Source: Candidatus Poribacteria bacterium
Lineage (GTDB): Bacteria > Poribacteria > WGA-4E > WGA-3G
Length of the DNA: 64,000 nt
NCBI GenBank assembly: GCA_028820845.1
Contig: JAPPII010000004.1
Span: 20,314 to 84,313 of the forward strand
Direction of reading: 5' to 3'
The position numbers were made by a program, and so were the translations under genes. The notes under the pieces are model-generated. The model did no database searches and had not been told where the DNA came from. It worked only from the letters and a program-made list of their open reading frames with translations. The number at the start of each line of letters is the position of its first letter. The first letter of the stretch is position 1. Below are positions 12,263 through 50,435 of this stretch, in pieces.

Positions 12263-12429
12263 AGGACTTACGCACTCCCCTGGTAGGTGCGGTTTCCAAC
12301 CGCACCGAACCCTGATAGAAAGTGCCTGCACCATTGGTAGGTGCGGTTTCCAACCGCACCGAGCCCTGATAGAAAGTGCCTGCACCATATCAAAATAGGC
12401 GTTCTGACCCCAATTTTGCGTAAGTCCTA
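12263..12429. repeat. MITE-like element bounded by inverted repeats ggacttacgca / tgcgtaagtcc. It contains two tandem 54-bp units, each with a ggtaggtgcggtttccaaccgcacc hairpin (12282-12306 and 12336-12360).
   Basis: Direct reading. The same terminal inverted repeats bound the elements at 15781-15900, 42986-43108, 46161-46273 and 50322-50435. Confidence 0.8.
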
Positions 12430-25868: not shown

Positions 25869-25906
25869 TCTTCTTGTAGGAGCGAGCTGTGCTCGCGACT
25901 TGTATG
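25869..25906. repeat. REP-like palindrome tcttcttgtaggagcgagctgtgctcgcgactt. Copies also at 29570-29612 and 63283-63318.
   Basis: Three near-identical copies in intergenic positions. Confidence 0.8.
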
Positions 25907-27173: not shown

Positions 27174-28259
27174 CTAAATCTCAGGCACTCGGACCGCAAC
27201 CTCTTTCCCTGCTGCGTGTGAGCGGAAGATACCGTCCATAATCACATTCGTGAGTAGGACACCCTCTGGGGGTATCGGAGACGGTGCGTCCGCTTTAACG
27301 GCTTCACGGAACGCCGTCATCTGTGCCTCCCAAACATCGACCTCTGGGAATCCTGAGAGTTGGATCGTGGTCATCCCCTCTGGTGGGTTCGGCGCTGCTG
27401 TCAAACCTTCCGATTCAACTAACTTCTTAAGTTCACCGCCGTATTCATCGGCATAGATAGTGGGTCCACCCAAAGAGATACCCATTTCCTTACCGAGACA
27501 GAAACTCGGACCGAGTGAATCCTGATGAATTGCCCAAGAGATCTTGAACACCATCACGCTGCCGTCTTCAAACCGGACCCACGCCACACCGAACTCTTCG
27601 ACATCCATAATACCGCGGAACCTCGGATCTTGCTGCGAAATATAGTCTTCGGTGATAGCCGAGACGCGCACGGGTTTCGGATACCCCATCGCATACAACG
27701 AGTTGTGCATGTTATAGACCCCGATGTCAACGATTGCACCGGCACCCGCAGTCTTTTTATAGATGAACGTACGCCCTGGATTCCCACGCCGTCTGCCTCC
27801 TGAGGATTCGGAATAGTAGATGTCGCCGAGAAAACCTTCATCGATGACCTTCTTGGCGAACTGGAGTCTCGGATTGAACGTGCTGTGGAGACCGATTTGC
27901 AGGATTTTACCGGATGCCTTTGCTGCGCGTGCCATAGCCGTTGCATCGGGGAGTTTGGCTGCCATCGGTTTTTCACAGAAGACGTGTTTACCGGCATTCA
28001 GTGCCGCGACAGTGGGTCGGCGGTGACCTTGGTTGTAAGTACAGACGCTAACTGTATCGATCTCGTCCATCTCAAGCATTTTGTTGTAGCTTGTGAAGAC
28101 GTGTTTTTTCGGGACACCCCACTGTTCGGCGGCTTCGTTTGCCTTGCTTTTGATGATGTCGCAGACGGCAACGATCTCAAAACCCCCGACTTTCATGTAG
28201 GTTCTCTGGTGTGCGCGGGAAATACCACCTGTGCCCACAATACCGACTCGAATCGTCAT
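27174..28259 (-). CDS. Gfo/Idh/MocA family NAD(P)-dependent oxidoreductase, copy 1 of a tandem pair.
   Basis: MTIRVGIVGTGGISRAHQ...VAVCDI... N-terminal Rossmann fold. Largely identical to 28356-29441. Confidence 0.85.
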   Translation of the reverse strand: MTIRVGIVGTGGISRAHQRTYMKVGGFEIVAVCDIIKSKANEAAEQWGVPKKHVFTSYNKMLEMDEIDTVSVCTYNQGHRRPTVAALNAGKHVFCEKPMAAKLPDATAMARAAKASGKILQIGLHSTFNPRLQFAKKVIDEGFLGDIYYSESSGGRRRGNPGRTFIYKKTAGAGAIVDIGVYNMHNSLYAMGYPKPVRVSAITEDYISQQDPRFRGIMDVEEFGVAWVRFEDGSVMVFKISWAIHQDSLGPSFCLGKEMGISLGGPTIYADEYGGELKKLVESEGLTAAPNPPEGMTTIQLSGFPEVDVWEAQMTAFREAVKADAPSPIPPEGVLLTNVIMDGIFRSHAAGKEVAVRVPEI

Positions 28260-28355: not shown

Positions 28356-29441
28356 CTAAATCTCAGGCACTCGGACCGCTACCTCTTTCTGTGCTTTATG
28401 CGATCGGAAGATACCATCCATAATCACATTTGTGAGCAGGACCCCTTCTGGTGGTATTGGCGACGGTGCGTCTGCTTTGACGGCTTCACGGAACGCGATC
28501 ATCTGTGCCGCCCAGTTATCTTCCTCTGGGAATCCTGAGAACCGAATCGTCGTCATTCCTTCCGGCGGGTTCGGTTCCGCTGTCAACCCTTCCGATTCAA
28601 CAAACTTCTTGAGATCCCCGCTGTATGCATCGGCGTAGACAACCGGTCCATCCAACGAGATCCCCGCTTTTTGACCAAGATGGAAGTTGCCGCCGAGAGA
28701 ATCCTGATGCACCGCCCAGGAGATTTTGAACACCAGCACGCCACCATTTTCAAACCGGACCCACGCCACACCGAACTCTTCGACATCCATGATACCGCGG
28801 AATCTCGGATCTTGCTGCGAAATGTAATCCTCGGTGATAGCAGAGACGCGCACGGGTTTCGGATACCCCATCGCATACAGCGATCTGTGCATGTTATAGA
28901 CACCGATATCAACGGTTGCCCCCGCGCCTGCTGTCTTTTTGTAGATGAACGTATGTCCCGGATTCCCACGTCGTCTGCACCCGGCAGATTCGGAGTAGTA
29001 GATGTCGCCGAGCAAGCCTTCATCGATCATCTTCCTTGCGAATTGGAGTCTCGGACTAAACGTCGGGTTGAGACCGATTTGCAGGATTTTGCCGGATGCC
29101 TTTGCTGCGCGGGCCATAGCAGTCGCATCGGGTAGCGTCGCTGCCATCGGTTTTTCACAGAGGACGTGTTTACCGGCGTTCAGTGCAGCGACGGTGGGTC
29201 GACGGTGTCCTTGATTATACGTGCAGACGCTAACTGCATCCAGTGCGTCCATTTCGAGCATTTTATTATAGCTGGAGAAGGCGTGCTTTCTGGGGACACC
29301 CCACTCGTCAGCGGCTTGATTCGCCTTACTTTTGATGATGTCGCAGACAGCAACAATCTCGAAACCCCCGACTTTCGTATAATACTGCTGGTGCGCACGC
29401 GAAATGCCACCCGTACCAATGATACCGACTCGGACTGTCAT
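28356..29441 (-). CDS. Gfo/Idh/MocA family oxidoreductase, copy 2 of the tandem pair.
   Basis: MTVRVGIIGTGGISRAHQQYYTKVGGFEIVAVCDIIKSKAN... Confidence 0.85.
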   Translation of the reverse strand: MTVRVGIIGTGGISRAHQQYYTKVGGFEIVAVCDIIKSKANQAADEWGVPRKHAFSSYNKMLEMDALDAVSVCTYNQGHRRPTVAALNAGKHVLCEKPMAATLPDATAMARAAKASGKILQIGLNPTFSPRLQFARKMIDEGLLGDIYYSESAGCRRRGNPGHTFIYKKTAGAGATVDIGVYNMHRSLYAMGYPKPVRVSAITEDYISQQDPRFRGIMDVEEFGVAWVRFENGGVLVFKISWAVHQDSLGGNFHLGQKAGISLDGPVVYADAYSGDLKKFVESEGLTAEPNPPEGMTTIRFSGFPEEDNWAAQMIAFREAVKADAPSPIPPEGVLLTNVIMDGIFRSHKAQKEVAVRVPEI

Positions 29442-29864
29442 ATTATATCACCCCATGAGCAGAATTGAATTGACATAAGAGTGTAGACGAAACCGGTTTG
29501 CAATGCAAGCGAAAAATAATCCATCATTTGTATACTTTGCAGACGCGCCACTTTCACTTCTAACATGCCGGCTCTTTCTTCCTGTAGGAGCGAGCTGTGC
29601 TCGCGACTTTTTTATCTCCCGATTTAAAAACTAATCTTCACCAAAATTAGTAGGCGAGGTTTCTAACCTCGCCGGTTCTCAGTCCACGATATAAACATTT
29701 CCCATTCATGCTTGCTCATAGTGCCTTGATAATTCTAAAATCTACTGCAACGACCTTCGGAAATTTGACACTTATTTGCATATTGTGATATACTTTGTAT
29801 ACCAACAGCCAAAATCAAACGTTGTATTTTCTATACATATACTTTGCTGGAAGGGACAAAATTT

Positions 29865-31271
29865 ATGACAGAGGCACCGTACAGCATCTTTGATTCACGC
29901 ACTCCTGACGATATCCACCATGAGATTCAAAAGGTTTATCTTGAAAACGCCCGACCATGGGTCATCGGATACAGCGGCGGAAAAGACTCGACGACTGCAC
30001 TTCAACTGATTTGGTATGCCCTTGCTGAATTGCCGCCAGAACAAAGGAAATATCCGGTCTACGTGATTTCATCTGATACATTGGTTGAGACACCGGTGAT
30101 TGTGAGCTACATCACTGGCACCTTAGACCGTATCGAGACGACTGCCCGCGAACAAAAGATGCCGTTTCAGACGGCCCTCGTCCGTCCAAAGACGGAAGAT
30201 ACCTTCTGGGTGAATCTCATCGGCAAAGGTTACCCTGCCCCGTATACACGCTTCCGGTGGTGTACGGACCGAATGAAAATCCAGCCAGCGAATCGGTTCA
30301 TATTGGAAAAAGTTGCTGAACACGGTGAAGTTATAATGGTTCTCGGGGTTCGCAAAGGTGAAAGTGCAACGCGCGATCAAGTCTTAAGTTTGCACCGTAT
30401 GAAAGATTCGCTCCTTTCACGACACACGACGTTACCCAATGCTTTTGTTTATACGCCTGTGGTCGATTTTACCATGGAAGACGTGTGGATGTATCTGTTA
30501 TCCAATCCCTCCCCGTGGGGCGGTGATAATCGACAGTTGGTGACACTCTATCGCAACACGAGCGCGGAAGGTGAGTGTCCTTTGGTGGTTGACGAGACAA
30601 CGCCATCTTGTGGAAACAGCCGCTTTGGATGCTGGACCTGCACTGTTGTAACAAAGGATAAAGCGATGGAAGGCCTAATTGATAGCGGGGAAGATTGGAT
30701 GCTACCCCTGCTTGAATTCCGTGACTTTCTTGCTGAGACCCAAGATCCTGTAAGGAAACCTGAAGTCCGCGAGCATCGTCGACGGAATGGACAAGTTATG
30801 ATCCTCAATAACAAACTTGTCCACGGTCCCTATACGTTGGACTTTTGCAAGGAACTCTTAACAAGACTTCTCACAACCCAGCAACAGGTTCGTAGAGACG
30901 GACCTGACCCAGATATCAAACTCATCACGGACGACGAGCTCGAAGAGATACGCAGGATCTGGCGAACCGAACGCCAAGATTGGGAAGACGCTGTCCCACA
31001 AATCTACACTGAGATTGTTGGAGACCGCGATTGGATCGTTGATAATACCCTCTCCTTTACTGAAAAGGATAAAGATATTTTGGAGGCGATCTGCAATGAA
31101 AACGGAATCCCTGTTACCCTTGTTGCAAAATTATTGGACACAGAGCGACAGATGGATGGAATGAGTCGACGTGCTGGAATACAATCCCGAATTGACGAGA
31201 TATTCCATGAGGATTGGCGTTCAGAAGAAGAAGTCCGGGCCGGTTTAGATAACGGTGATTTCCAACAATGA
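29865..31271 (+). CDS. dndC: DndC-like PAPS-reductase-fold ATP pyrophosphatase (DNA phosphorothioation protein DndC family).
   Basis: PP-loop WVIGYSGGKDSTTALQLIW. DndC-type Cys cluster ...ECPLVVDETTPSCGNSRFGCWTCTVV.... The ATG at 29865 is preceded by ggaaggg. A TTGACA-N18-TATACT promoter candidate lies at about 29776-29806. Confidence 0.8.
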   Translation: MTEAPYSIFDSRTPDDIHHEIQKVYLENARPWVIGYSGGKDSTTALQLIWYALAELPPEQRKYPVYVISSDTLVETPVIVSYITGTLDRIETTAREQKMPFQTALVRPKTEDTFWVNLIGKGYPAPYTRFRWCTDRMKIQPANRFILEKVAEHGEVIMVLGVRKGESATRDQVLSLHRMKDSLLSRHTTLPNAFVYTPVVDFTMEDVWMYLLSNPSPWGGDNRQLVTLYRNTSAEGECPLVVDETTPSCGNSRFGCWTCTVVTKDKAMEGLIDSGEDWMLPLLEFRDFLAETQDPVRKPEVREHRRRNGQVMILNNKLVHGPYTLDFCKELLTRLLTTQQQVRRDGPDPDIKLITDDELEEIRRIWRTERQDWEDAVPQIYTEIVGDRDWIVDNTLSFTEKDKDILEAICNENGIPVTLVAKLLDTERQMDGMSRRAGIQSRIDEIFHEDWRSEEEVRAGLDNGDFQQ

Positions 31272-33295
31272 TTATCCACAAGCTCACTCTTAACAATATT
31301 GGTCTGTTCCGCGGGACACAAACTATTAATCTTACACCGAACGGCAAGGGCCCCATAATCCTTATTGGCGGGATGAACGGGGCTGGTAAAACGACGCTCT
31401 TAGACGCAATTCGTCTTTGTTTGTACGGCAGGCGGTCCCTTGGGAACCGCGTCAGCCACAATGAATATTATGACTATCTCTCTTCATTGATTCATCGCGG
31501 TTCTGATTCAACAATACCTTTGAATCACGCTGCTGTATCACTTGAGTTTGAATATGCACACAGTGGAGAAACGAAACAATACCGTATTGAACGCACATGG
31601 CAACGGTCTGGCTCAAAACACCATAGCGTTAGCGAAGGTTTGACAATCTCCGAAAATAACTGGTTGAATACCGAATTTGACGCGGAACATTGGCAGGATC
31701 GTATTTATGAGTTTATCCCTATTGGGGTCTCCCAATTCTTTTTTTTCGACGGTGAGGACATCCAAAAATTGGCAGACGACTCCAAGCACGACCTATATCT
31801 CGCTGAGTCAACCAAAGCGTTGCTTGGGATAAACTTGGTGGAGCGATTACAATCGGATTTGCGTATCTACGCGAATCGTCTCGTGAAGCGTGATAGCCCT
31901 GAACCGGTCCAGAAAGAAATTGTGGAAGTAGAAGCAGAAATTGCTACGCTTGAGTCTGCACTCAGAGATACATACGTACGTGCAGAAGCTTTGGACATTC
32001 AAAGTGAGAAACTGGAAAACCAGATTGAGAGACAAGAATTGATCATTGCAGCCGAAGGTGGAGGTTATGCAGCGAAGCGAGAAAGCCTGAAAGTACAACA
32101 GGGACAGCTTCTTGCTGATATTGAGGCGTTGGAGACTGATATCCGAGACCTATGCGGTGAACTGTTTCCGTTTGCCTTAGTCCCTGATCTGCTCAAGAAA
32201 CTGGAAGATCGGCTCCTTAAAGAGATTGAATTAGACGAATGGGAAGCAAAGAATCTCGCCTTAGAATCTGTCAACACTGAAGTACTTAAGACCTTGGCAT
32301 CTGCCGCATTTTGGGATAGTGTCTCTTTACCTGAACCACAAATTGAAGCAGTTCGTTCCAAAATCACGCCATTCCTGAAAACCCAACTTGAAAAAACAAA
32401 ACGTGAACAACCAGAGACACTTCGCGGCTTCAAGAAGATCCGGGACCGCTCTCCTTCGGAGTACGGTCACCTATTGGAGTGGATTGATGCCTGCCTTAAT
32501 GAAGTGCCTCAAGAATTTCGTGAGTTGAATGATACATTAGCAAAAGCACAATTAGAACTGCAAAAGGTGGATCAGGACCTTCAGAAAGTCCCAGCCGAAG
32601 AGGTCTTGAAACCACTGATCGAAAAATTGTCCCTGTCAAATCAAGAACTTGGACAACTCCATAAAGAGGAACAAGAGGCAGAACAATCTATCAAATCTTT
32701 AGAGTATCAACTTGAAGTGGCAGAGCGAAAATTGGATAAACTGCGTCACACACAACAATTAGGAGAAGCACACGTCCAACGTCAACAACGCGTAGAAAAC
32801 GTGCAATCGGTGCTTTCTGCTTACACAACACGGTTGACCCAAGCTAAAATCGCTACATTGAGTGAGGCCATTGTACAAGGTTTTAATCAACTTTCACATA
32901 AACCCGATCGGATTAGACGCGTTGAAATTGACCCCCTGACCTTTGCTGTGACGCTCTATGATACCCAGAATCGCGCACTACGAAAAGAGAAGTTATCCGC
33001 GGGTGAGAAACAAATTTACACAACTGCCCTTTTATGGGCATTAGCGAAAACATCAGGTAAGGCATTACCGATGATTCTTGACACCCCGCTTGGACGTTTG
33101 GACAGTAGTCACAGACGACTTCTTATTGAACGTTATTTTCCGTATGCGAGTCATCAAGTTGTTCTGTTGTCAACCGACACCGAGGTCCAGGGATACTTGC
33201 GTTCGCTATTGGATCCCTACATTTCGCGTACTTTCCACTTGGTGTATCAACAAGTTGAAGGGTATACGACAATAAAGGAAGGCTATTTTGGGTAA
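31268..33295 (+). CDS. dndD: DndD-like SMC/ABC-type ATPase (DNA sulfur modification protein DndD family).
   Basis: N-terminus MIIHKLTLNNIGLFRGTQTINLTPNGKGPIILIGGMNGAGKTTLLDAIRLCLYG is the characteristic DndD start with Walker A. Long coiled-coil middle region. C-terminal signature and Walker B ...LSAGEKQIYTTALLWAL...PMILDTPLGRLD. The start overlaps the dndC stop (ATGA). Confidence 0.85.
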   Translation: MIIHKLTLNNIGLFRGTQTINLTPNGKGPIILIGGMNGAGKTTLLDAIRLCLYGRRSLGNRVSHNEYYDYLSSLIHRGSDSTIPLNHAAVSLEFEYAHSGETKQYRIERTWQRSGSKHHSVSEGLTISENNWLNTEFDAEHWQDRIYEFIPIGVSQFFFFDGEDIQKLADDSKHDLYLAESTKALLGINLVERLQSDLRIYANRLVKRDSPEPVQKEIVEVEAEIATLESALRDTYVRAEALDIQSEKLENQIERQELIIAAEGGGYAAKRESLKVQQGQLLADIEALETDIRDLCGELFPFALVPDLLKKLEDRLLKEIELDEWEAKNLALESVNTEVLKTLASAAFWDSVSLPEPQIEAVRSKITPFLKTQLEKTKREQPETLRGFKKIRDRSPSEYGHLLEWIDACLNEVPQEFRELNDTLAKAQLELQKVDQDLQKVPAEEVLKPLIEKLSLSNQELGQLHKEEQEAEQSIKSLEYQLEVAERKLDKLRHTQQLGEAHVQRQQRVENVQSVLSAYTTRLTQAKIATLSEAIVQGFNQLSHKPDRIRRVEIDPLTFAVTLYDTQNRALRKEKLSAGEKQIYTTALLWALAKTSGKALPMILDTPLGRLDSSHRRLLIERYFPYASHQVVLLSTDTEVQGYLRSLLDPYISRTFHLVYQQVEGYTTIKEGYFG

Positions 33296-33588
33296 TACTA
33301 AAATTTGGACAGTTCGTTTTGTTTCAAGTTGTGTTTTCCAATACCTCGGTGTTTTTCAGCAAGTTTTCCTAAAGGTGTAGTTCGCCAAAAAACAGGATTT
33401 CGGGTGAGAATATAAGCAACCCTTGCAGAATGCCACACGCGCATTCTGCATTGATTCCGGGGTGACATGTGTCATAAAATCTGAAGTAGGTGTCAAAAAA
33501 TTTGTGTTCAATTCAACTGCCTCACGGGAATTCTTAAAATTGTCCAAAGTTTAGTAAATCTATACACAAGTAGGGAAACAACATATTA

Positions 33589-34575
33589 ATGAAAAAGATA
33601 CGTAAAAGGACAATAGGATCTGTTAAGTCAGAACTTCTTGCTAAGGCACGAGAGGCAGCTTTATGTGCTATCCAAATTTTCAATTCCCCTCAAATTTTCT
33701 TCAAATCAGAGACTTTTATAGTCCTTATGGTAATAGCATGGACCTATATGCTTCATGCTTACTACAGATCTAAAGGTATCGAATACCGGTATTATAAACA
33801 GAGAGGTAAGAGAAAATCCTTTGAGCGAACTAAACATAAATCTTATAGATATTGGGAACTTGAAACCTGTTTAAGGCGTGATGAGTGCCCAATTGACATT
33901 AACACAACTAATAATCTTCTATTTCTGATAGGGCTCCGTCACGAAATTGAACATCAAATGACTCGTTCACTTGATAACTATCTGAGTGGCCACTATCAAG
34001 CATGTGCTCTGAACTTCAATCACTACATGAAGGAACTCTTTGGAGACAGATATGGCATCGATGATCATTTGGCATTCAGCATCCAGTTTATGAAACATTC
34101 GGAGGAACAAATTCTTGGTTCCAAGCCTGAGCCAAATATTCCAGAGCATCTACAAACTTATATTACTGAATTTAATGCTAGCCTAACCGAGGATCAGCGT
34201 AACAGTGAAAATTATGTAATCCGGCTAGTGTTCCGACCAAAGTTAGTTAATCGCCCGGGGCAAGCAGACAAGGTTATTGACTTTGTTAAGCCTGACTCAG
34301 CAGCTCCTTTTGAAGATAACGGGACATTGTACGTAACAACAAAGGAGATCGAACGTCCTAAACTCCTCCCTTCCGCTGTGGCGGCAAAGGTGCAAGAAGC
34401 AGGTTTTAAAAAGTTCAGGACTCAACCAGAGCATGTCAGGATGTGGAAAGCAGAAGATGCAAAGAATCCCAGCAAAGGATATGGCGTTGAAGTGCAAGGT
34501 CAATGGTATTGGTATGAATCTTGGGTTAAACGCTGTCTTGAATTGTGTAAAGCAGCTGGCGATCTTTACCGTTGA
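33589..34575 (+). CDS. Hypothetical protein with a HEPN-like R-x4-H motif; possible abortive-infection-type effector.
   Basis: LLFLIGLRHEIEHQMT contains RHEIEH (Rx4H) inside a predicted helical region. No other family recognised. AT-rich codon usage typical of the island. Confidence 0.35.
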   Translation: MKKIRKRTIGSVKSELLAKAREAALCAIQIFNSPQIFFKSETFIVLMVIAWTYMLHAYYRSKGIEYRYYKQRGKRKSFERTKHKSYRYWELETCLRRDECPIDINTTNNLLFLIGLRHEIEHQMTRSLDNYLSGHYQACALNFNHYMKELFGDRYGIDDHLAFSIQFMKHSEEQILGSKPEPNIPEHLQTYITEFNASLTEDQRNSENYVIRLVFRPKLVNRPGQADKVIDFVKPDSAAPFEDNGTLYVTTKEIERPKLLPSAVAAKVQEAGFKKFRTQPEHVRMWKAEDAKNPSKGYGVEVQGQWYWYESWVKRCLELCKAAGDLYR

Positions 34576-34616
34576 GAGACCAATCGAGTGTTAAATAATC
34601 CTTAAGCCATTCGTAG

Positions 34617-35573
34617 TTACTTTCTAAAAGCTTCCTCACGATGCCACGCCAAAGCATCTTGAGCCGGGTAAAGTGCGTCGTGTTCAGGCAACAATATAGT
34701 CTTCTCGCTCAGTTGAGTTAGCATCCACTCCGTTGGTCTTCTTTCTGACATGAGTACAGAGACAATAACTTGATAGGTCTCGTTCAAAGAAATTAAGCCT
34801 TTGTCAAAAGCCCAATGGTGCAATTTGCAAAGCGAGATTCCATTCCGCACATCGTCATTTCTTGAAATACGAAATGGAATGATGTGCGCGGCATCAGTCG
34901 CACTTTCCCCATCCATTGTGACAATGCGTAACCGACAAACAGCACAAGTATAATCGTACATTCTCATAATTGCTTGACGAAAGCCCGCAGTACGAATTGG
35001 ATTCTCTCTTTCAATTGGTGCTATCGGTTGCTGGGATGAAAATGTCTGTTCGACCTGTCGGATCAGCAACTGTCTGTACTCTCCAATTTGTTGTTCTTCT
35101 GTAATGAGGCTTTTGATCGCTTGCTCGAATTTAGAGAAATAGGTGTGAATAAGCGTTTGACGGAGAACCTCTCGATCTCGCGGGGTAGTGAGCAAAACAA
35201 AAAGCTCATCATCTAAACTTGCGTATGCAACAACTTCCCGAAGGCGGGATATTGATGTAATTCTACTCCTAACACTCAGGGCTTTTTCGTAACCAGCGTT
35301 TGGATGAAGGTGCCAGAAACCTCTGCCCGTTAGATGAAAAAATGGCAGAGCAATATTAGGTTTTCGATCTGTTACTACCTTCGTCCAATATTTCAGGAAA
35401 GTTTCTGCCAAATCTGGAGACAATAGTACTTTATTTTCCTGAATTTGTCCTTGCTCAATCAGTGCGATAATGACTAACAGAAGAAGCGGTTGGTGGGGTG
35501 CCGCACCATGTGCTCGGTCTATCCGCAAGCTTTTGAATTTTTGGACGTATTTTTGTAGGATAGTATTAGCCAT
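34617..35573 (-). CDS. HNH endonuclease with an about 200-aa N-terminal domain of unknown type (possibly a DNA or modification reader).
   Basis: C-terminal HNH: YDYTCAVCRL...DAAHIIPFRISRNDDVRNGISLCKLHHWAFDKG. Confidence 0.75.
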   Translation of the reverse strand: MANTILQKYVQKFKSLRIDRAHGAAPHQPLLLLVIIALIEQGQIQENKVLLSPDLAETFLKYWTKVVTDRKPNIALPFFHLTGRGFWHLHPNAGYEKALSVRSRITSISRLREVVAYASLDDELFVLLTTPRDREVLRQTLIHTYFSKFEQAIKSLITEEQQIGEYRQLLIRQVEQTFSSQQPIAPIERENPIRTAGFRQAIMRMYDYTCAVCRLRIVTMDGESATDAAHIIPFRISRNDDVRNGISLCKLHHWAFDKGLISLNETYQVIVSVLMSERRPTEWMLTQLSEKTILLPEHDALYPAQDALAWHREEAFRK

Positions 35574-35782
35574 CTTTTTACTGATACTGTGTTAAGTAAG
35601 ACTGGCAATTTTCTGGTGTCGGGTGTGAGACCGCAACCTATTTTTCACTAATACTGTGTAGCTTAAACACGGGGTATAAAAGTCTTTGACAAGATCTGCT
35701 CCATCGGAACGATATTCGTATTTTAACGAGATTTCTTTGAGTGATATAAAAGTTTTTCCAAAAAGTTAACTGTTTTCTAACA

Positions 35783-35845
35783 CCACAATTTTAACATATT
35801 TTGTAAAAAAATTCAAAATTTTCCTGACCGCTATCAAAGTCTACT
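35783..35845 (-). promoter_or_regulatory. Promoter/operator copy A, upstream of the HNH gene. Reverse strand reads TTGAAT-N17-TTAAAAT.
   Basis: About 55 bp nearly identical to 37738-37800: cacaattttaacatattttgtaaaaaaattcaaaattttcctgacc against cggcaattctaacatatttcgtgaaaaaatgtcaaaattttcctaac. Confidence 0.6.
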
Positions 35846-35956
35846 AATCCTGAAAATCCTGATTCAGATGATTAACGCCTCCCATTGTAAATGCAGAGTA
35901 GCAATTCTGTTGGCTACACGCCTCTATCATGAAATTAGAATCAATAAAGCCGTAAC

Positions 35957-37219
35957 TTACAAGACTCTTTTCGGTAATTGAACCTGGTTCGTCTCTTGTT
36001 CTAATGCCTTAGCATAATCCTCGCGTAATTTATTTACATCCCCCGAAAATTGATTCAGCATATAGAATAACAAATTTTTAGCGAGCGTCTTACCTTTTAT
36101 GATCATCTTTTTTTTTGTAGGGTGCCAGATGATACCATTATAGGGGACTTGGGTCAGGTCTGTAGGTAATTTTGAAAGCATCTTGAAACATTCAGGGAGT
36201 GGATACTTCTCTGCAAGTACCGCGATGACTTCTGTTAATATCTTGAGACCTATAGGACGAAAAAGGACGCTGCCTCCGTCTGAATGTCTATATTTCTTAA
36301 CAACTGTTGAATTGTCAGATGTATTAGCAAATTCCTGCAAGGGTAAAAAACTATTTGTAAGGCGTTTAAAGTAATCACAAGCATTGTCGTAATGCTGATT
36401 GAGAATCTCATCTGATTGGCGTATTTTCGTGAGTTCATCTTTTTTCTCTTTAAGTGTCTTTCTTTTTGAGAGGACGTATACTTTGGTAAAGAGTATGTCT
36501 AACAGATCGTAAAGATTCCCAATCGTCGTGAGACAGGTCTGATTACTTTTTGGGATACTATCGGGCACATTGTTTAAAATTCGTGGGTCCATAAACATCG
36601 GATTTCCCGCAACCAACCGTCGGACAATAATAGCTATCGTATCGTTCTCATCAAGAGCGATAATTTCTCCTTTTGAAACCCGGACAGCATTTTTATTTAA
36701 AGTCGTGAAAAGCCTCCGGCTCCTTTCCACTCCTTCTATATCCGTTCTGTGCGCGATGAAAATAATAGACAATTCCTCTTCGCCCAATTGTGGGTTCTCT
36801 GTTACAGCTGCTTTAATTCCTATGAGGCGGTGTTGCCCATCTAATGTGAATAGTTTTTCTTCTCCGTTCAGACTTAGAATTCCGATCCCCGCGACTACAT
36901 CTTCTGGAATCTCTTCAGGATCCAATTGGTTGTTGCTCTTGATATGGGTAATATCATACCAGCTGGGGTCGCCTTCATAGGCTGCGACAATCAGCGAATT
37001 AAAAAAACGTTGTTCCTGTTTTAAGAGATAATCTCTTATCTCGTTCCCTCGTTTTCTTTTTATCTCTCGTTGTACCATCTCGCTCAAGGTTTTGCTTTGG
37101 TAAATTTCCTCAGCAATTTTAACCCTTTCAGCGATGTCTTTAAGTTTCATGAGGGTAGGGTAATAGACCCAATCACCCACTATGCCTCTTAGCGACGGAA
37201 GATATAATTTTTCCATCAT
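35957..37219 (-). CDS. dndB: DGQHR-domain protein (DndB family).
   Basis: ...KLFTLDGQHRLIGIKAAV... contains the DGQHR motif. The N-terminus MMEKLYLPSLRGIVGDWVYYPTLMKL is typical of DndB-like proteins. Confidence 0.75.
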   Translation of the reverse strand: MMEKLYLPSLRGIVGDWVYYPTLMKLKDIAERVKIAEEIYQSKTLSEMVQREIKRKRGNEIRDYLLKQEQRFFNSLIVAAYEGDPSWYDITHIKSNNQLDPEEIPEDVVAGIGILSLNGEEKLFTLDGQHRLIGIKAAVTENPQLGEEELSIIFIAHRTDIEGVERSRRLFTTLNKNAVRVSKGEIIALDENDTIAIIVRRLVAGNPMFMDPRILNNVPDSIPKSNQTCLTTIGNLYDLLDILFTKVYVLSKRKTLKEKKDELTKIRQSDEILNQHYDNACDYFKRLTNSFLPLQEFANTSDNSTVVKKYRHSDGGSVLFRPIGLKILTEVIAVLAEKYPLPECFKMLSKLPTDLTQVPYNGIIWHPTKKKMIIKGKTLAKNLLFYMLNQFSGDVNKLREDYAKALEQETNQVQLPKRVL

Positions 37220-37716
37220 TTTAGTCCTTTGATTATGTCTCGTACTTCCGCTGAATATCCTCGTTCAACGAAAGGTGGTGTGAAGGTATCTAATAGCATG
37301 CGCTCTAGCTGTTTTAAATCCATCTCGGTTGGATCTACTTCGACGTAATAAAAATACAGATAGTTTTCCCATGTATTTAGCATAAGGTGAATACGTCTTC
37401 TTTTGGGATGCTGTTTGTAATAGAGATAATCTCTAAATCTTTTTTGTAAGTCCCGCTCGCTCTCATGTCCTGTTTGTCCGAGGTATACTAAATAACCATG
37501 CGCTGGAAAATTACCAATTCTGGGTTCAATGAAAAAAGCGTAAATTCCCTTCTCAGTAGGGATCTTATTCGCGTTGTTTCTTTCAAACTTTACGCATTGC
37601 CAATCTAATGCAATCCGTGGGGCAGTGTAGGTATCCCACTGTTCTTTCCAAAGAAAAAAGGATCTTTGATAAATACTTACATCTTTTTGCTGATCAATTG
37701 GATCTTGGTATACCAT
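37216..37716 (-). CDS. Small GIY-YIG-like nuclease domain protein, translationally coupled to the DGQHR gene by a 4-nt overlap.
   Basis: EKGIYAFFIEP...HGYLVYLGQTGHESERDLQKRFRDYLYY parallels GIY...YVGKAKDLKKRLSSY of GIY-YIG nucleases. The GIY-to-YxG spacing is longer than usual. Confidence 0.45.
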   Translation of the reverse strand: MVYQDPIDQQKDVSIYQRSFFLWKEQWDTYTAPRIALDWQCVKFERNNANKIPTEKGIYAFFIEPRIGNFPAHGYLVYLGQTGHESERDLQKRFRDYLYYKQHPKRRRIHLMLNTWENYLYFYYVEVDPTEMDLKQLERMLLDTFTPPFVERGYSAEVRDIIKGLK

Positions 37717-37737
37717 AACGTCTCCTAAAGCGGTTTA

Positions 37738-37800
37738 CACGGCAATTCTAACATATTTCGTGAAAAAATGTCAAAATTTTCCTAACACTACCAAAATCCG
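37738..37800 (-). promoter_or_regulatory. Promoter/operator copy B, upstream of the GIY-YIG/DGQHR operon. Reverse strand reads TTGACA-N17-TTAGAAT.
   Basis: Same 55-bp element as 35783-35845. Confidence 0.6.
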
Positions 37801-37922
37801 CGTCATCCGTGCAATCCGCGTTATCCGAGATTTGCGGCGTACTCGCCCAAAAGCGACGTGCATTCAGACGAAAAAAAATCCTAATTCCGACAGACAACCC
37901 ATAACTTATAACCCATTTTTAC

Positions 37923-37951
37923 TTGACATCCGTTAGCAAAAAGAGTATAAT
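37923..37951 (+). promoter_or_regulatory. Perfect consensus sigma70-type promoter TTGACA-N17-TATAAT with no ORF within about 500 bp (orphan).
   Basis: acTTGACAtccgttagcaaaaagagTATAATat. Confidence 0.6.
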
Positions 37952-38321
37952 ATATCATTAAGATTTCCAAAGAGGTGAATAGCGTATCAAACTATAGCCG
38001 ACAGCCAATTGCCAACAGCCAACAGCCACAAAAAAATGTTACACTTTTGGCAAAATTGCGTTTTTTCGCATAACAGAAAATCGAAAGTAAAACGTCTACG
38101 AACCCCGACACCCACTGGGTTCTCTTACGGTATAGGCAACACACCAAATGTACACCGGTGTAACATTAGTGTAACATTTTTAACGCAAATTGCTGAAAAA
38201 TATACCGTTAAGTTAAAACCGTATTCACGCCCGTATGATCCTGTGAATCCTTGAATCCTGTCCATCCGCATTCTGACAATCCGCTGCCAAAATATTTAAA
38301 CACCCCTCCAAAATTTTATAT

Positions 38322-38350
38322 TTGACAAATTTCTGGGAAAAATGTAAAAT
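38322..38350 (+). promoter_or_regulatory. Promoter TTGACA-N17-TAAAAT for the secreted paralogue pair.
   Basis: tTTGACAaatttctgggaaaaatgTAAAATat, 125 nt upstream of the ATG at 38475. Confidence 0.6.
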
Positions 38351-38474
38351 ATACAACAATAAGGCAGGAAACGATTGTAACTTTGCAACAAAAGCGTGTT
38401 AACATCGTTTTGTATAATAGGTGATTGCGCATCGCAATGCGGATTTTTTACACTAACCGATAGGAGATTCTCAC

Positions 38475-50321: not shown

Positions 50322-50435
50322 ATAGGACTTACACACTCCATTGGTAGGTGCGGTTTCCAACCGCACCTACCCCTGATAGCAAGTGTCTTCATCATATCAA
50401 GATGGACGTTCTGACGCAATTTTGCGTAAGTCCTA
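50322..50435. repeat. MITE-like element (taggacttacacac ... ttttgcgtaagtcctat) containing a ggtaggtgcggtttccaaccgcacc hairpin (50343-50367).
   Basis: Direct reading. Confidence 0.75.

Follow-up and report, generated by a model that had tools for sequence, protein, structure and literature searches.

How does a bacterial defence island come to hold dndC and dndD, two genes for writing DNA phosphorothioate (PT), without dndE, and next to them a nuclease predicted to cut PT-marked DNA? The question is raised by a 64,000-nt stretch of a Candidatus Poribacteria genome (contig JAPPII010000004.1, positions 20,314–84,313; hereafter the window, whose own numbering is used throughout), the organism being a sponge symbiont. 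The island lies at ~29.5–38.5 kb and has a GC content of 0.37–0.45 vs 0.51–0.53 in the flanks; the left flank carries two Gfo/Idh/MocA genes, the right flank two paralogous putative secreted genes and an FGE-sulfatase gene. The exact DGQHR protein of the island is on record for a 194,880-bp metagenome scaffold (ENA ERZ23495530, ROBB21-1 scaffold_89), NCBI lists an identical DUF3644 protein under Candidatus Poribacteria, and the 9-kb island has no match in E. coli genomes, so that an enterobacterial source is excluded. A first-pass annotation, made by a model from the letters, had described the AT-richness and both flanks correctly, and had proposed an undescribed variant in which DndC and DndD, without DndE, are paired with a DGQHR/GIY-YIG/HNH nuclease module. 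The answer given here is that the island occupies a slot conserved as a defence hotspot, that every gene in it belongs to a known superfamily, and that the "non-canonical Dnd set" is a remnant and not a new design; it is judged moderately likely that the island was caught midway through a switch from PT writer to PT reader.

The incomplete writer

The dndC–dndD operon at 29865–33295 was recovered as annotated, both products scoring above the TIGR03183 and TIGR03185 cutoffs (Table 1). DndC: 468 aa, open reading frame (ORF) intact, SGGKDS P-loop and Cys cluster present; DndD: full length, TIGR03185 alignment covering 1–674 of the protein and 1–650 of 650 profile positions. A lookup of the exact DndC sequence gave no record, although this ORF is called on locus L001. 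The partners of these proteins were searched for by tblastn in the 64 kb of the window, which is part of a 195-kb scaffold (for DndE: five query sequences, E ≤ 10). No match to DndE, DndA, IscS, the DndB equivalog, PbeC or dnd_assoc_4 was obtained anywhere in the 64 kb, in agreement with the earlier statement that dndA, dndB and dndE are lacking at the island; remnants of DndE, PbeC and dnd_assoc_4 were not found in the window, nor were SspB, SspC, SspD and PDC-M33C. Directly after dndD there is no ORF, unlike in the relatives that carry dndE at this place.

DndD and DndE are the obligatory DNA-scanning core of the writer and a co-evolving operonic pair (PMC10853773). Compared with the Dnd system (DndABCDE), the window holds equivalogs of DndC and DndD and none of DndE. 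Compared with DndCDE(A)-PbeABCD defence (Xiong 2019, PMC6459918; re-annotated as a CxC ABC-ATPase system in PMC10853773), it lacks dndE, pbeA (a fossil excepted), pbeB, pbeC, pbeD and a nearby cysteine desulfurase; PbeA (HKD + SF2 helicase), the PbeC ATPase and PbeD (the DndE cognate), by which the Pbe or CxC ABC-ATPase system is recognized, are not encoded in it. Kinship with Dnd-Pbe is seen in relatives at the same site, which carry pbeA (HKD + SF2 helicase), pbeC, dnd_assoc_4 and dndE, and in the window itself, where the promoter of pbeA and its first 28 codons survive. Without the ATPase–DndE pair, the defining core, the Dnd set of the window is best taken for a remnant.

Replacement of the writer genes

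Homology (blastn) of the window to related loci (designated L with a number) in the Dnd state, namely L012, L016 and L070, stops at the dndD stop codon and resumes at a pbeA fossil and its promoter; in L070 and L016 dndE stands immediately after dndD, with a gap of 6 bp. The fossil encodes ISLKEISLKYEYRSDGADLVKDFYTPCL immediately downstream of promoter copy 2 (Table 1), and 24 of its 28 residues are identical to residues 1–28 of the PbeA of L016 (tblastn, E = 2e-10). The duplicated promoter that had been noticed over the HNH gene is a real direct repeat (62 nt, 74% identity; copy 1, TTGACA-18-TAGAAT; copy 2, TTGAAT-17-TAAAAT). In L069 and L003, too, the conserved motif of copy 1 precedes the GIY-YIG gene; copy 2 is closest in the alignment to the promoter 5' of pbeA in L003, the shared GTTAGAAAAYAGTTAA tail included. 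The promoter copy over the HNH gene, being of the pbeA type and followed by a pbeA fossil, is therefore the pbeA promoter, orphaned. An independent pbeA fossil (residues 12–38) lies directly before the HNH gene of L004.

The HNH gene and the DUF3644 gene form a unit common to the window and L017, one 2.0-kb block of 74% identity. A single replacement removed ~5 kb, from codon 29 of pbeA through dndE, and installed the 2.4-kb cassette listed in Table 1. The fossil, the pbeA-type promoter and the end of homology at the dndD stop codon therefore point to an ancestor like L003 and L070, in which the layout inferred for it is still found: promoter – GIY-YIG – DGQHR – promoter – pbeA-pbeB-pbeC-pbeD, convergent with dndC-dndD-dndE. 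In all 11 related loci that have dndD and could be assessed, dndE is present too, usually together with the Pbe module. In view of this, of the fossil and of the end of homology, the missing dndE is a scar of the replacement and not a matter of design. The proposal of a purposely DndE-less variant is not supported by these data.

The sulfur-binding HNH nuclease and the DUF3644 protein

The HNH endonuclease on the opposite strand, as the first-pass annotation had it, was found (HNH_2, PF13391, 49.5 bits vs cutoff 21; motifs AAH...RNG...LHH, with the catalytic His/Asn/His, visible in the translation), and a more specific identity is predicted for it from its sequence, that of a PT-dependent type IV enzyme. 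Residues 6–156 match the sulfur-binding domain (SBD) SBDHga (PDB 8h0l, E = 2.5e-20); four of the five residues of the sulfur cavity of SBDHga (H, K, L, P, H; PMC10602919) are identical (H, L, P, H) and K is replaced by Q. A precomputed Pfam match is to PF26340 (DNA-SBD_ScoMcrA), and the profile of phosphorothioated-DNA-binding restriction endonucleases (NF045808) aligns with the protein end to end (5–284 of 284 profile positions). The suggestion of a modification-sensing restriction system made earlier fits this gene, given its N-terminal SBD. In the family to which it is likened (ScoMcrA, SprMcrA, EcoWI, SBDHga; PMC6224610, PMC7461809, PMC10602919) an N-terminal SBD is likewise joined to a C-terminal HNH_2 domain; as in SprMcrA and EcoWI, there is no SRA domain. 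Unlike most of the family, the SBD-HNH gene of the window adjoins dndC/dndD, a situation of <3.6% of the predicted enzymes (PMC7461809).

Variants of the gene were seen in related loci: tandem duplication in L004, L007, L009 and L073; two short ORFs in place of one, probably a pseudogene, in L072 (11289–12010); an internal rearrangement of ~390 bp in L069 (11274–12638).

The HEPN-like ORF reported after dndD proved to be a DUF3644 protein with a full-length match to PDC-S19 (466 bits), the HEPN fold and the Rx4H motif; the HEPN superfamily is recognized by a four-helix fold with a conserved Rx4-6H motif. No difference at the level of sequence was found between it and PDC-S19/DUF3644, a group whose defence role is itself a prediction.

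Writer or reader at related loci

Related loci were searched for with tblastn and their ORFs were clustered; 26 close loci could be assessed for both dndE and SBD-HNH. Relatives of the DGQHR protein are encoded in 45 genome loci, mostly of Poribacteria, the others of Latescibacterota, Dehalococcoidia, Gallionella and an alphaproteobacterium. In a metagenome scan, 20 of 21 matches were distant (37–46% identity) and informative on linkage to Ssp, not on close intermediates. This locus family has an invariant core, the GIY-YIG + DGQHR pair, which in Poribacteria occupies the same slot as in the window, with secreted paralogues/FGE-sulfatase on one side and Gfo/Idh/MocA on the other.

Two states of the slot were found. 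In state A (writer) the pair faces convergent dndC-dndD-dndE (DndE: TIGR03184, 92 bits), usually with pbeA (PADLOC, 825 bits), pbeC (426–595 bits) and dnd_assoc_4. State B (reader) has SBD-HNH, as one gene or two, on the strand of the pair and neither dndD nor dndE. SBD-HNH without dndE was found in 15 of the 26 loci and dndE without SBD-HNH in 11; the two never occur together, and no locus is without one of them (Fisher p = 1.3e-7 over the 26 loci, shared ancestry being ignored). Among the 15 HNH-state loci, dndD is present in one and no dnd gene at all in 12; the window is the only locus with SBD-HNH and dndD. L010 and L011 have SBD-HNH together with dndC only and a dndD stub of 40–85 nt, the junctions differing between the two; in both, the process of writer loss seems to have gone further.

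Other cargo was met between DGQHR and dndE: SNF2 helicase, ParB_N protein, ParB-HTH protein and a metallo-beta-lactamase/beta-CASP-like exonuclease (L012, 11364–15351; L071, 12977–17443, where there is also a DDE transposase; L046; L025).

Table 1: Features of the island (positions in the window; a dot marks features without strand).
Feature	Position	Strand	Evidence and remarks
Two REP-like hairpins	29577-29609 and 29650-29693	.	left island edge
Candidate promoter 5' of dndC	29765-29794	+	TTGACA-18-TATACT, with TG; consensus scan 11/12; pattern match only
dndC, PAPS-reductase-type sulfurtransferase	29865-31271	+	TIGR03183 578 bits (cutoff 290); PADLOC DndC 668 bits
dndD, ABC/SMC-like ATPase	31268-33295	+	TIGR03185 531 bits (cutoff 246); 4-bp overlap with dndC
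Inserted 2.4-kb cassette (DUF3644 + SBD-HNH)	33296-35663	.	replaced pbeA (from codon 29), pbeB, pbeC, pbeD, dndE
DUF3644 protein, HEPN fold, predicted RNase	33589-34575	+	DUF3644 197 bits; PADLOC candidate PDC-S19
SBD-HNH, predicted PT-dependent type IV restriction endonuclease	34617-35573	-	SBD match and HNH_2
pbeA fossil, first 28 codons	35664-35747	-	start ATG -> ATA
Promoter repeat copy 2, pbeA-type	35780-35841	-	hexamers 35816-35788; 215 nt upstream of HNH gene
DGQHR (ParB/DndB-superfamily) protein	35957-37219	-	TIGR03187 114 bits (cutoff 58.9); Pfam DndB 117 bits
Stand-alone small GIY-YIG nuclease, 166 aa	37216-37716	-	ATGA overlap with DGQHR start
Promoter repeat copy 1	37737-37798	-	hexamers 37774-37745; immediately 5' of GIY-YIG/DGQHR operon

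The GIY-YIG/DGQHR pair

Two weak family calls were settled by structure predictions. The GIY-YIG protein lies below the Pfam cutoff (PF01541, 19.6 bits vs gathering 22.6; several homologues have a precomputed PF01541 match). Together with the profile searches the predictions confirmed all domain assignments of the first-pass annotation, and the translational coupling of the GIY-YIG-like nuclease to the DGQHR protein was seen in the ATGA overlap. The GIY-YIG protein has the alpha/beta fold of its superfamily with the conserved Tyr, Tyr, Arg and Glu; the catalytic residues are invariant across the family, which comprises 497 clusters at 50% identity (E ≤ 1e-10), and in 57 of 68 loci the gene immediately precedes DGQHR. 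In the DGQHR protein, residues D127, G128, Q129, H130 and R131 are invariant; it is 63–82% identical across ~30 related loci, nearly all of Poribacteria. Its family profile gave nothing significant against PDB sequences.

The description of this protein as DndB-like stood in part: the DGQHR domain is there, and the protein is not a DndB equivalog (TIGR03233, 73.7 bits vs 328). It shares with DndB (TIGR03233) and with the Dnd-associated DGQHR paralogues (TIGR04172) the DGQHR domain, the Pfam DndB match and the linkage to dnd genes; it differs from them in these scores (for TIGR04172, 31.7 bits vs 450), in the GIY-YIG gene that precedes it and in its linkage also to Ssp and PDC-M33 systems. A relocated or displaced DndB was considered for this gene and rejected, on the TIGR03233 score and because proteins of this type co-occur with canonical DndB in L047, where a true DndB (507 bits) coexists with the pair, and in L075. 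An assignment of the pair to SspG/SspH of SspFGH was also rejected; a Walker A motif is present in SspF and SspH resembles FtsK, but no DGQHR or GIY-YIG domain is described for them (PMC8092258).

The same logic, a ParB-superfamily DGQ(H/Q)R domain combined with a nuclease, is found in SspE and GmrSD, the likeness being one of functional analogy and not of membership. In SspE and GmrSD a ParB-like DUF262 NTPase is fused to a DUF1524 HNH nuclease, whereas the pair consists of two separate, coupled proteins, the nuclease of which is GIY-YIG and not HNH/DUF1524 and the ParB domain of which is of the DndB/DGQHR family (PF14072) and not DUF262; neither protein of the pair gave a Pfam or PADLOC match to DUF262 or DUF1524, and no match to SspE models was obtained. 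SspE is itself regarded as the ParB-superfamily equivalent of DndB (PMC10853773).

The argument for a function like that of SspE or GmrSD is one of gene context. Among the distant relatives, sspB (338 bits), sspC (1268 bits) and sspD (451 bits) immediately precede the pair. The position directly after sspB-sspC-sspD is that of SspE in the characterized Ssp systems. In Dehalococcoidia the pair follows PDC-M33A/B/C, whose C subunit has an SspD-like domain, and is itself followed by a bona fide SBD-HNH gene; other members of the family stand beside dndBCD (L075) or dndE. The tie between this module and Dnd genes, claimed earlier for the island, is thus widened to pairs adjoining Dnd/Pbe, SspBCD or PDC-M33 in several phyla. 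By analogy with SspE and GmrSD, the pair is probably a split module of that kind, in which a ParB-like NTPase controls a nuclease.

No PADLOC v2 model covers the GIY-YIG protein, its partner gave only a weak DndB match there, and no published description or name of the pair was found in the literature on DGQHR, DndB or SspBCD with GIY-YIG. URI/GIY-YIG nucleases have been noted at the edges of Dnd loci, and HNH, URI/GIY-YIG and HEPN genes in Dnd neighbourhoods have already been surveyed (PMC10853773). As ~84% of sspBCD clusters are without a known restriction partner (PMC8092258), the pair offers a concrete candidate partner for part of these clusters; a compact two-gene module travels with three DNA-modification systems based on PAPS reductase (Dnd, Ssp, PDC-M33) and with SBD-HNH.

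Two diverged copies of the pair (~38–40% identical) occur per genome in the Poribacteria genomes OZ244821.1 (L003 + L038), CBDBFT01 (L019 + L043), OY764073.1 (L040 + L046), JAPPIG01 (L008 + L031) and JAAXHL01 (L018 + L042); typically one is in the Dnd/HNH hotspot and the other is a neighbour of SspBCD. JAPPIG01 therefore has an SBD-HNH gene (L008) and an Ssp writer (L031) in one genome. A protein of ~818 aa (cluster c8) with a weak HATPase_c_3 (GHKL ATPase) match and no PADLOC or NCBIfam match recurs beside pair loci of the Ssp type (L031, L033, L036–L038, L040, L044, L056, L058, L060, L061, L064); it may be a third component.

Interpretation

In a switch from writer to reader, DndC and DndD, deprived of DndE and without a cysteine desulfurase close by, would no longer make PT of the Dnd type. 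The cell would tolerate the SBD-HNH enzyme because its own writer is presumably inactive; the enzyme would bind the PT sulfur in its N-terminal cavity, cut with its HNH domain and so restrict incoming PT-marked phage or plasmid DNA. PT systems are common in sponge microbiomes, which makes restriction of such DNA plausible. The DUF3644/HEPN protein may act as an independent abortive-infection backup of the RNase type. The GIY-YIG/DGQHR operon would be an old resident of the site; its ParB-like NTPase may sense DNA or PT status and license the partner nuclease to nick foreign DNA, and the pair may autoregulate through the promoter motif common to pbeA and HNH.

An SBD-HNH gene should not be found next to a working dnd cluster that shares its specificity, and in the rare cases where the two coexist the dnd cluster may be mutated (PMC7461809). 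The slot offers a natural experiment, PT writer and PT-dependent nuclease excluding each other at one chromosomal site, and the window adds a datable intermediate, in which pbeA survives as a fossil and dndE has been cut out precisely. Such a situation was predicted in PMC7461809 and was not documented there at breakpoint resolution. What goes beyond the ordinary is the record of the switch at the level of breakpoints, the strict either/or content of the slot and the unnamed GIY-YIG/DGQHR module.

Several observations weigh against this reading. The SBD-HNH protein scores 135 bits against NF045808, below the cutoff of 180; its Dehalococcoidia homologues in L026 and L035 pass at 251–257 bits. 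The exclusivity statistic is blind to common descent of the loci. In L026 (4894–12230) and L035, PDC-M33A-B-C, GIY-YIG, DGQHR and SBD-HNH stand on one strand, and SBD-SRA-HNH genes occur inside Dnd loci of 698 taxa (PMC10853773); elsewhere, then, reader and writer are found together. The search for partners covered 64 kb of the scaffold, and dndE or iscS may lie elsewhere in the genome. Neither dndC nor dndD shows decay, every motif being present and dN/dS low (~0.04–0.05 for dndC, ~0.10 for dndD), and the orphan dndC genes of L010 (12346–13749) and L011 (13628–15166) are intact as well (dN/dS ~0.05). Evolution of dndC and dndD is not accelerated on the window branch: amino-acid branch lengths, from pairwise dN, equal those of intact systems (DndC, 0.022 vs 0.021 and 0.033). 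As dS is saturated (~0.5 per branch; ≥1 in almost every pair), it does not separate continued function from a loss of dndE a short time ago; the intact and constrained genes mean either that dndE was lost very recently or that they still function. That dndC (and dndD) has been kept in the absence of dndE prompts one to ask whether DndC has a role that does not depend on DndE.

The PDC-M33C protein of L026 and L035 consists of DUF6339 and an SspD-like PAPS-reductase domain; in these operons a putative sulfur-modification writer stands beside a PT reader, contrary to the exclusivity found in Poribacteria.

That the writer still works, DndC and DndD using a DndE (and IscS) encoded elsewhere while the SBD-HNH enzyme reads another PT context, is unlikely, though several facts suit it: the purifying selection on the two intact genes is strong; the breakpoint spares the dndD stop codon exactly; several Poribacteria genomes have a second pair locus with SspBCD, e.g., RHO2_bin_17 (L008 in the HNH state, L031 with Ssp); and a different specificity is a listed explanation for the rare coexistences (PMC7461809). 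In a variant of this explanation SBD-HNH may read only double-strand PT of a foreign type, the two defences being complementary. It is opposed by the place of dndE, immediately after dndD in all 11 assessable relatives, by the lack of DndE, DndA and IscS in the 64 kb, and by the finding that SBDHga, the closest solved SBD, is sequence-promiscuous (PMC10602919); moreover, since DndD and DndE co-evolve as an operonic pair (PMC10853773), supply of DndE in trans would be unusual.

Quite improbable is the explanation by which the pair is a DndB-like transcriptional regulator with a selfish, homing-type GIY-YIG nuclease and the island a set of independent defence genes. DndB represses dnd operons under modulation by ATP, according to work cited in PMC10853773, the 62-nt promoter motif stands 5' of the pair's own operon and of pbeA (or, in the window, HNH), and the pair persists in writer and reader states alike, all of which a regulator would explain; it would not explain the coupling of GIY-YIG to DGQHR with catalytic residues invariant over ~500 clusters at 50% identity, the coexistence of the pair with canonical DndB in L047 and L075, or its effector position, that of SspE, after sspD.

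An integrated system of DndC/DndD without DndE and DGQHR/GIY-YIG/HNH, i.e., a write-then-cut or suicide circuit, is very improbable: intact dndC beside SBD-HNH in the window, L010 and L011 (constraint relaxed in none of them), the differing deletion junctions of L010 and L011, a slot after the pair that is never without writer or reader (0 of 26 empty) and the two one-strand Dehalococcoidia operons PDC-M33ABC – GIY-YIG – DGQHR – SBD-HNH speak for it, and against it stand the pbeA fossil, which shows an origin by accidental replacement, and the occurrence of dndD in one and of no dnd gene in 12 of the 15 HNH-state loci, by which the combination is therefore not conserved. We know of no mechanism for PT writing without DndE, which further counts against such a circuit. 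It is correspondingly hard to credit that dndC and dndD were kept because they still write PT without DndE, untargeted or on invading or replicating DNA, for their neighbours to read and cut; if true, this would be a self-contained immunity circuit, and the GIY-YIG/DGQHR pair a general PT-sensing effector for Dnd, Ssp and PDC-M33 writers.

Island boundaries and minor features

The two Gfo/Idh/MocA genes (27174–28259 and 28356–29441, both on the minus strand) are a tandem duplicate with 83% identity over the first 300 nt; they are kept as a pair across Poribacteria loci and make the left border of the hotspot. The claim that REP/MITE copies bound the island held for the left edge, where two hairpins lie (Table 1); at the right island edge no copy of these families was found. 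The first hairpin is 97% identical to 25869–25901 (hairpin family TGTAGGAGCGAGCTGTGCTCGCGACTT, at 25869 and 29577). The second belongs to a dispersed REP-like family, GTAGGTGCGGTTTCYAACCGCACC, with sites at 12283, 12337, 20765, 21016, 29650, 50338, 59131 and 63376; the hairpin is sometimes within longer 86-nt units (12277–12416 and 50338–50423).

In L009, L013, L016, L023, L069, L072 and L073 a PIN-domain gene and a gene for a protein of ~602 aa without Pfam match (clusters c19 + c35/c36) sit between the defence cargo and Gfo/Idh/MocA; they are absent from the window, which has the REP-like elements there instead.

Orphan consensus promoters had also been reported for the island. Such sites are present, though only modestly more numerous than in shuffled sequence (25 vs 16.5 ± 4.1 expected). 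No Rfam family was found in 25–42 kb and no tRNA in the window. The site at 37923–37951(+) is a perfect sigma-70 consensus (TTGACA-17-TATAAT, 12/12) within a non-coding stretch of 760 bp (37717–38474); the next gene on its strand begins 524 nt downstream, and neither an ORF nor an Rfam match was found after the site. A second site (11/12) at 38322–38350 is better placed for driving the secreted-protein gene.

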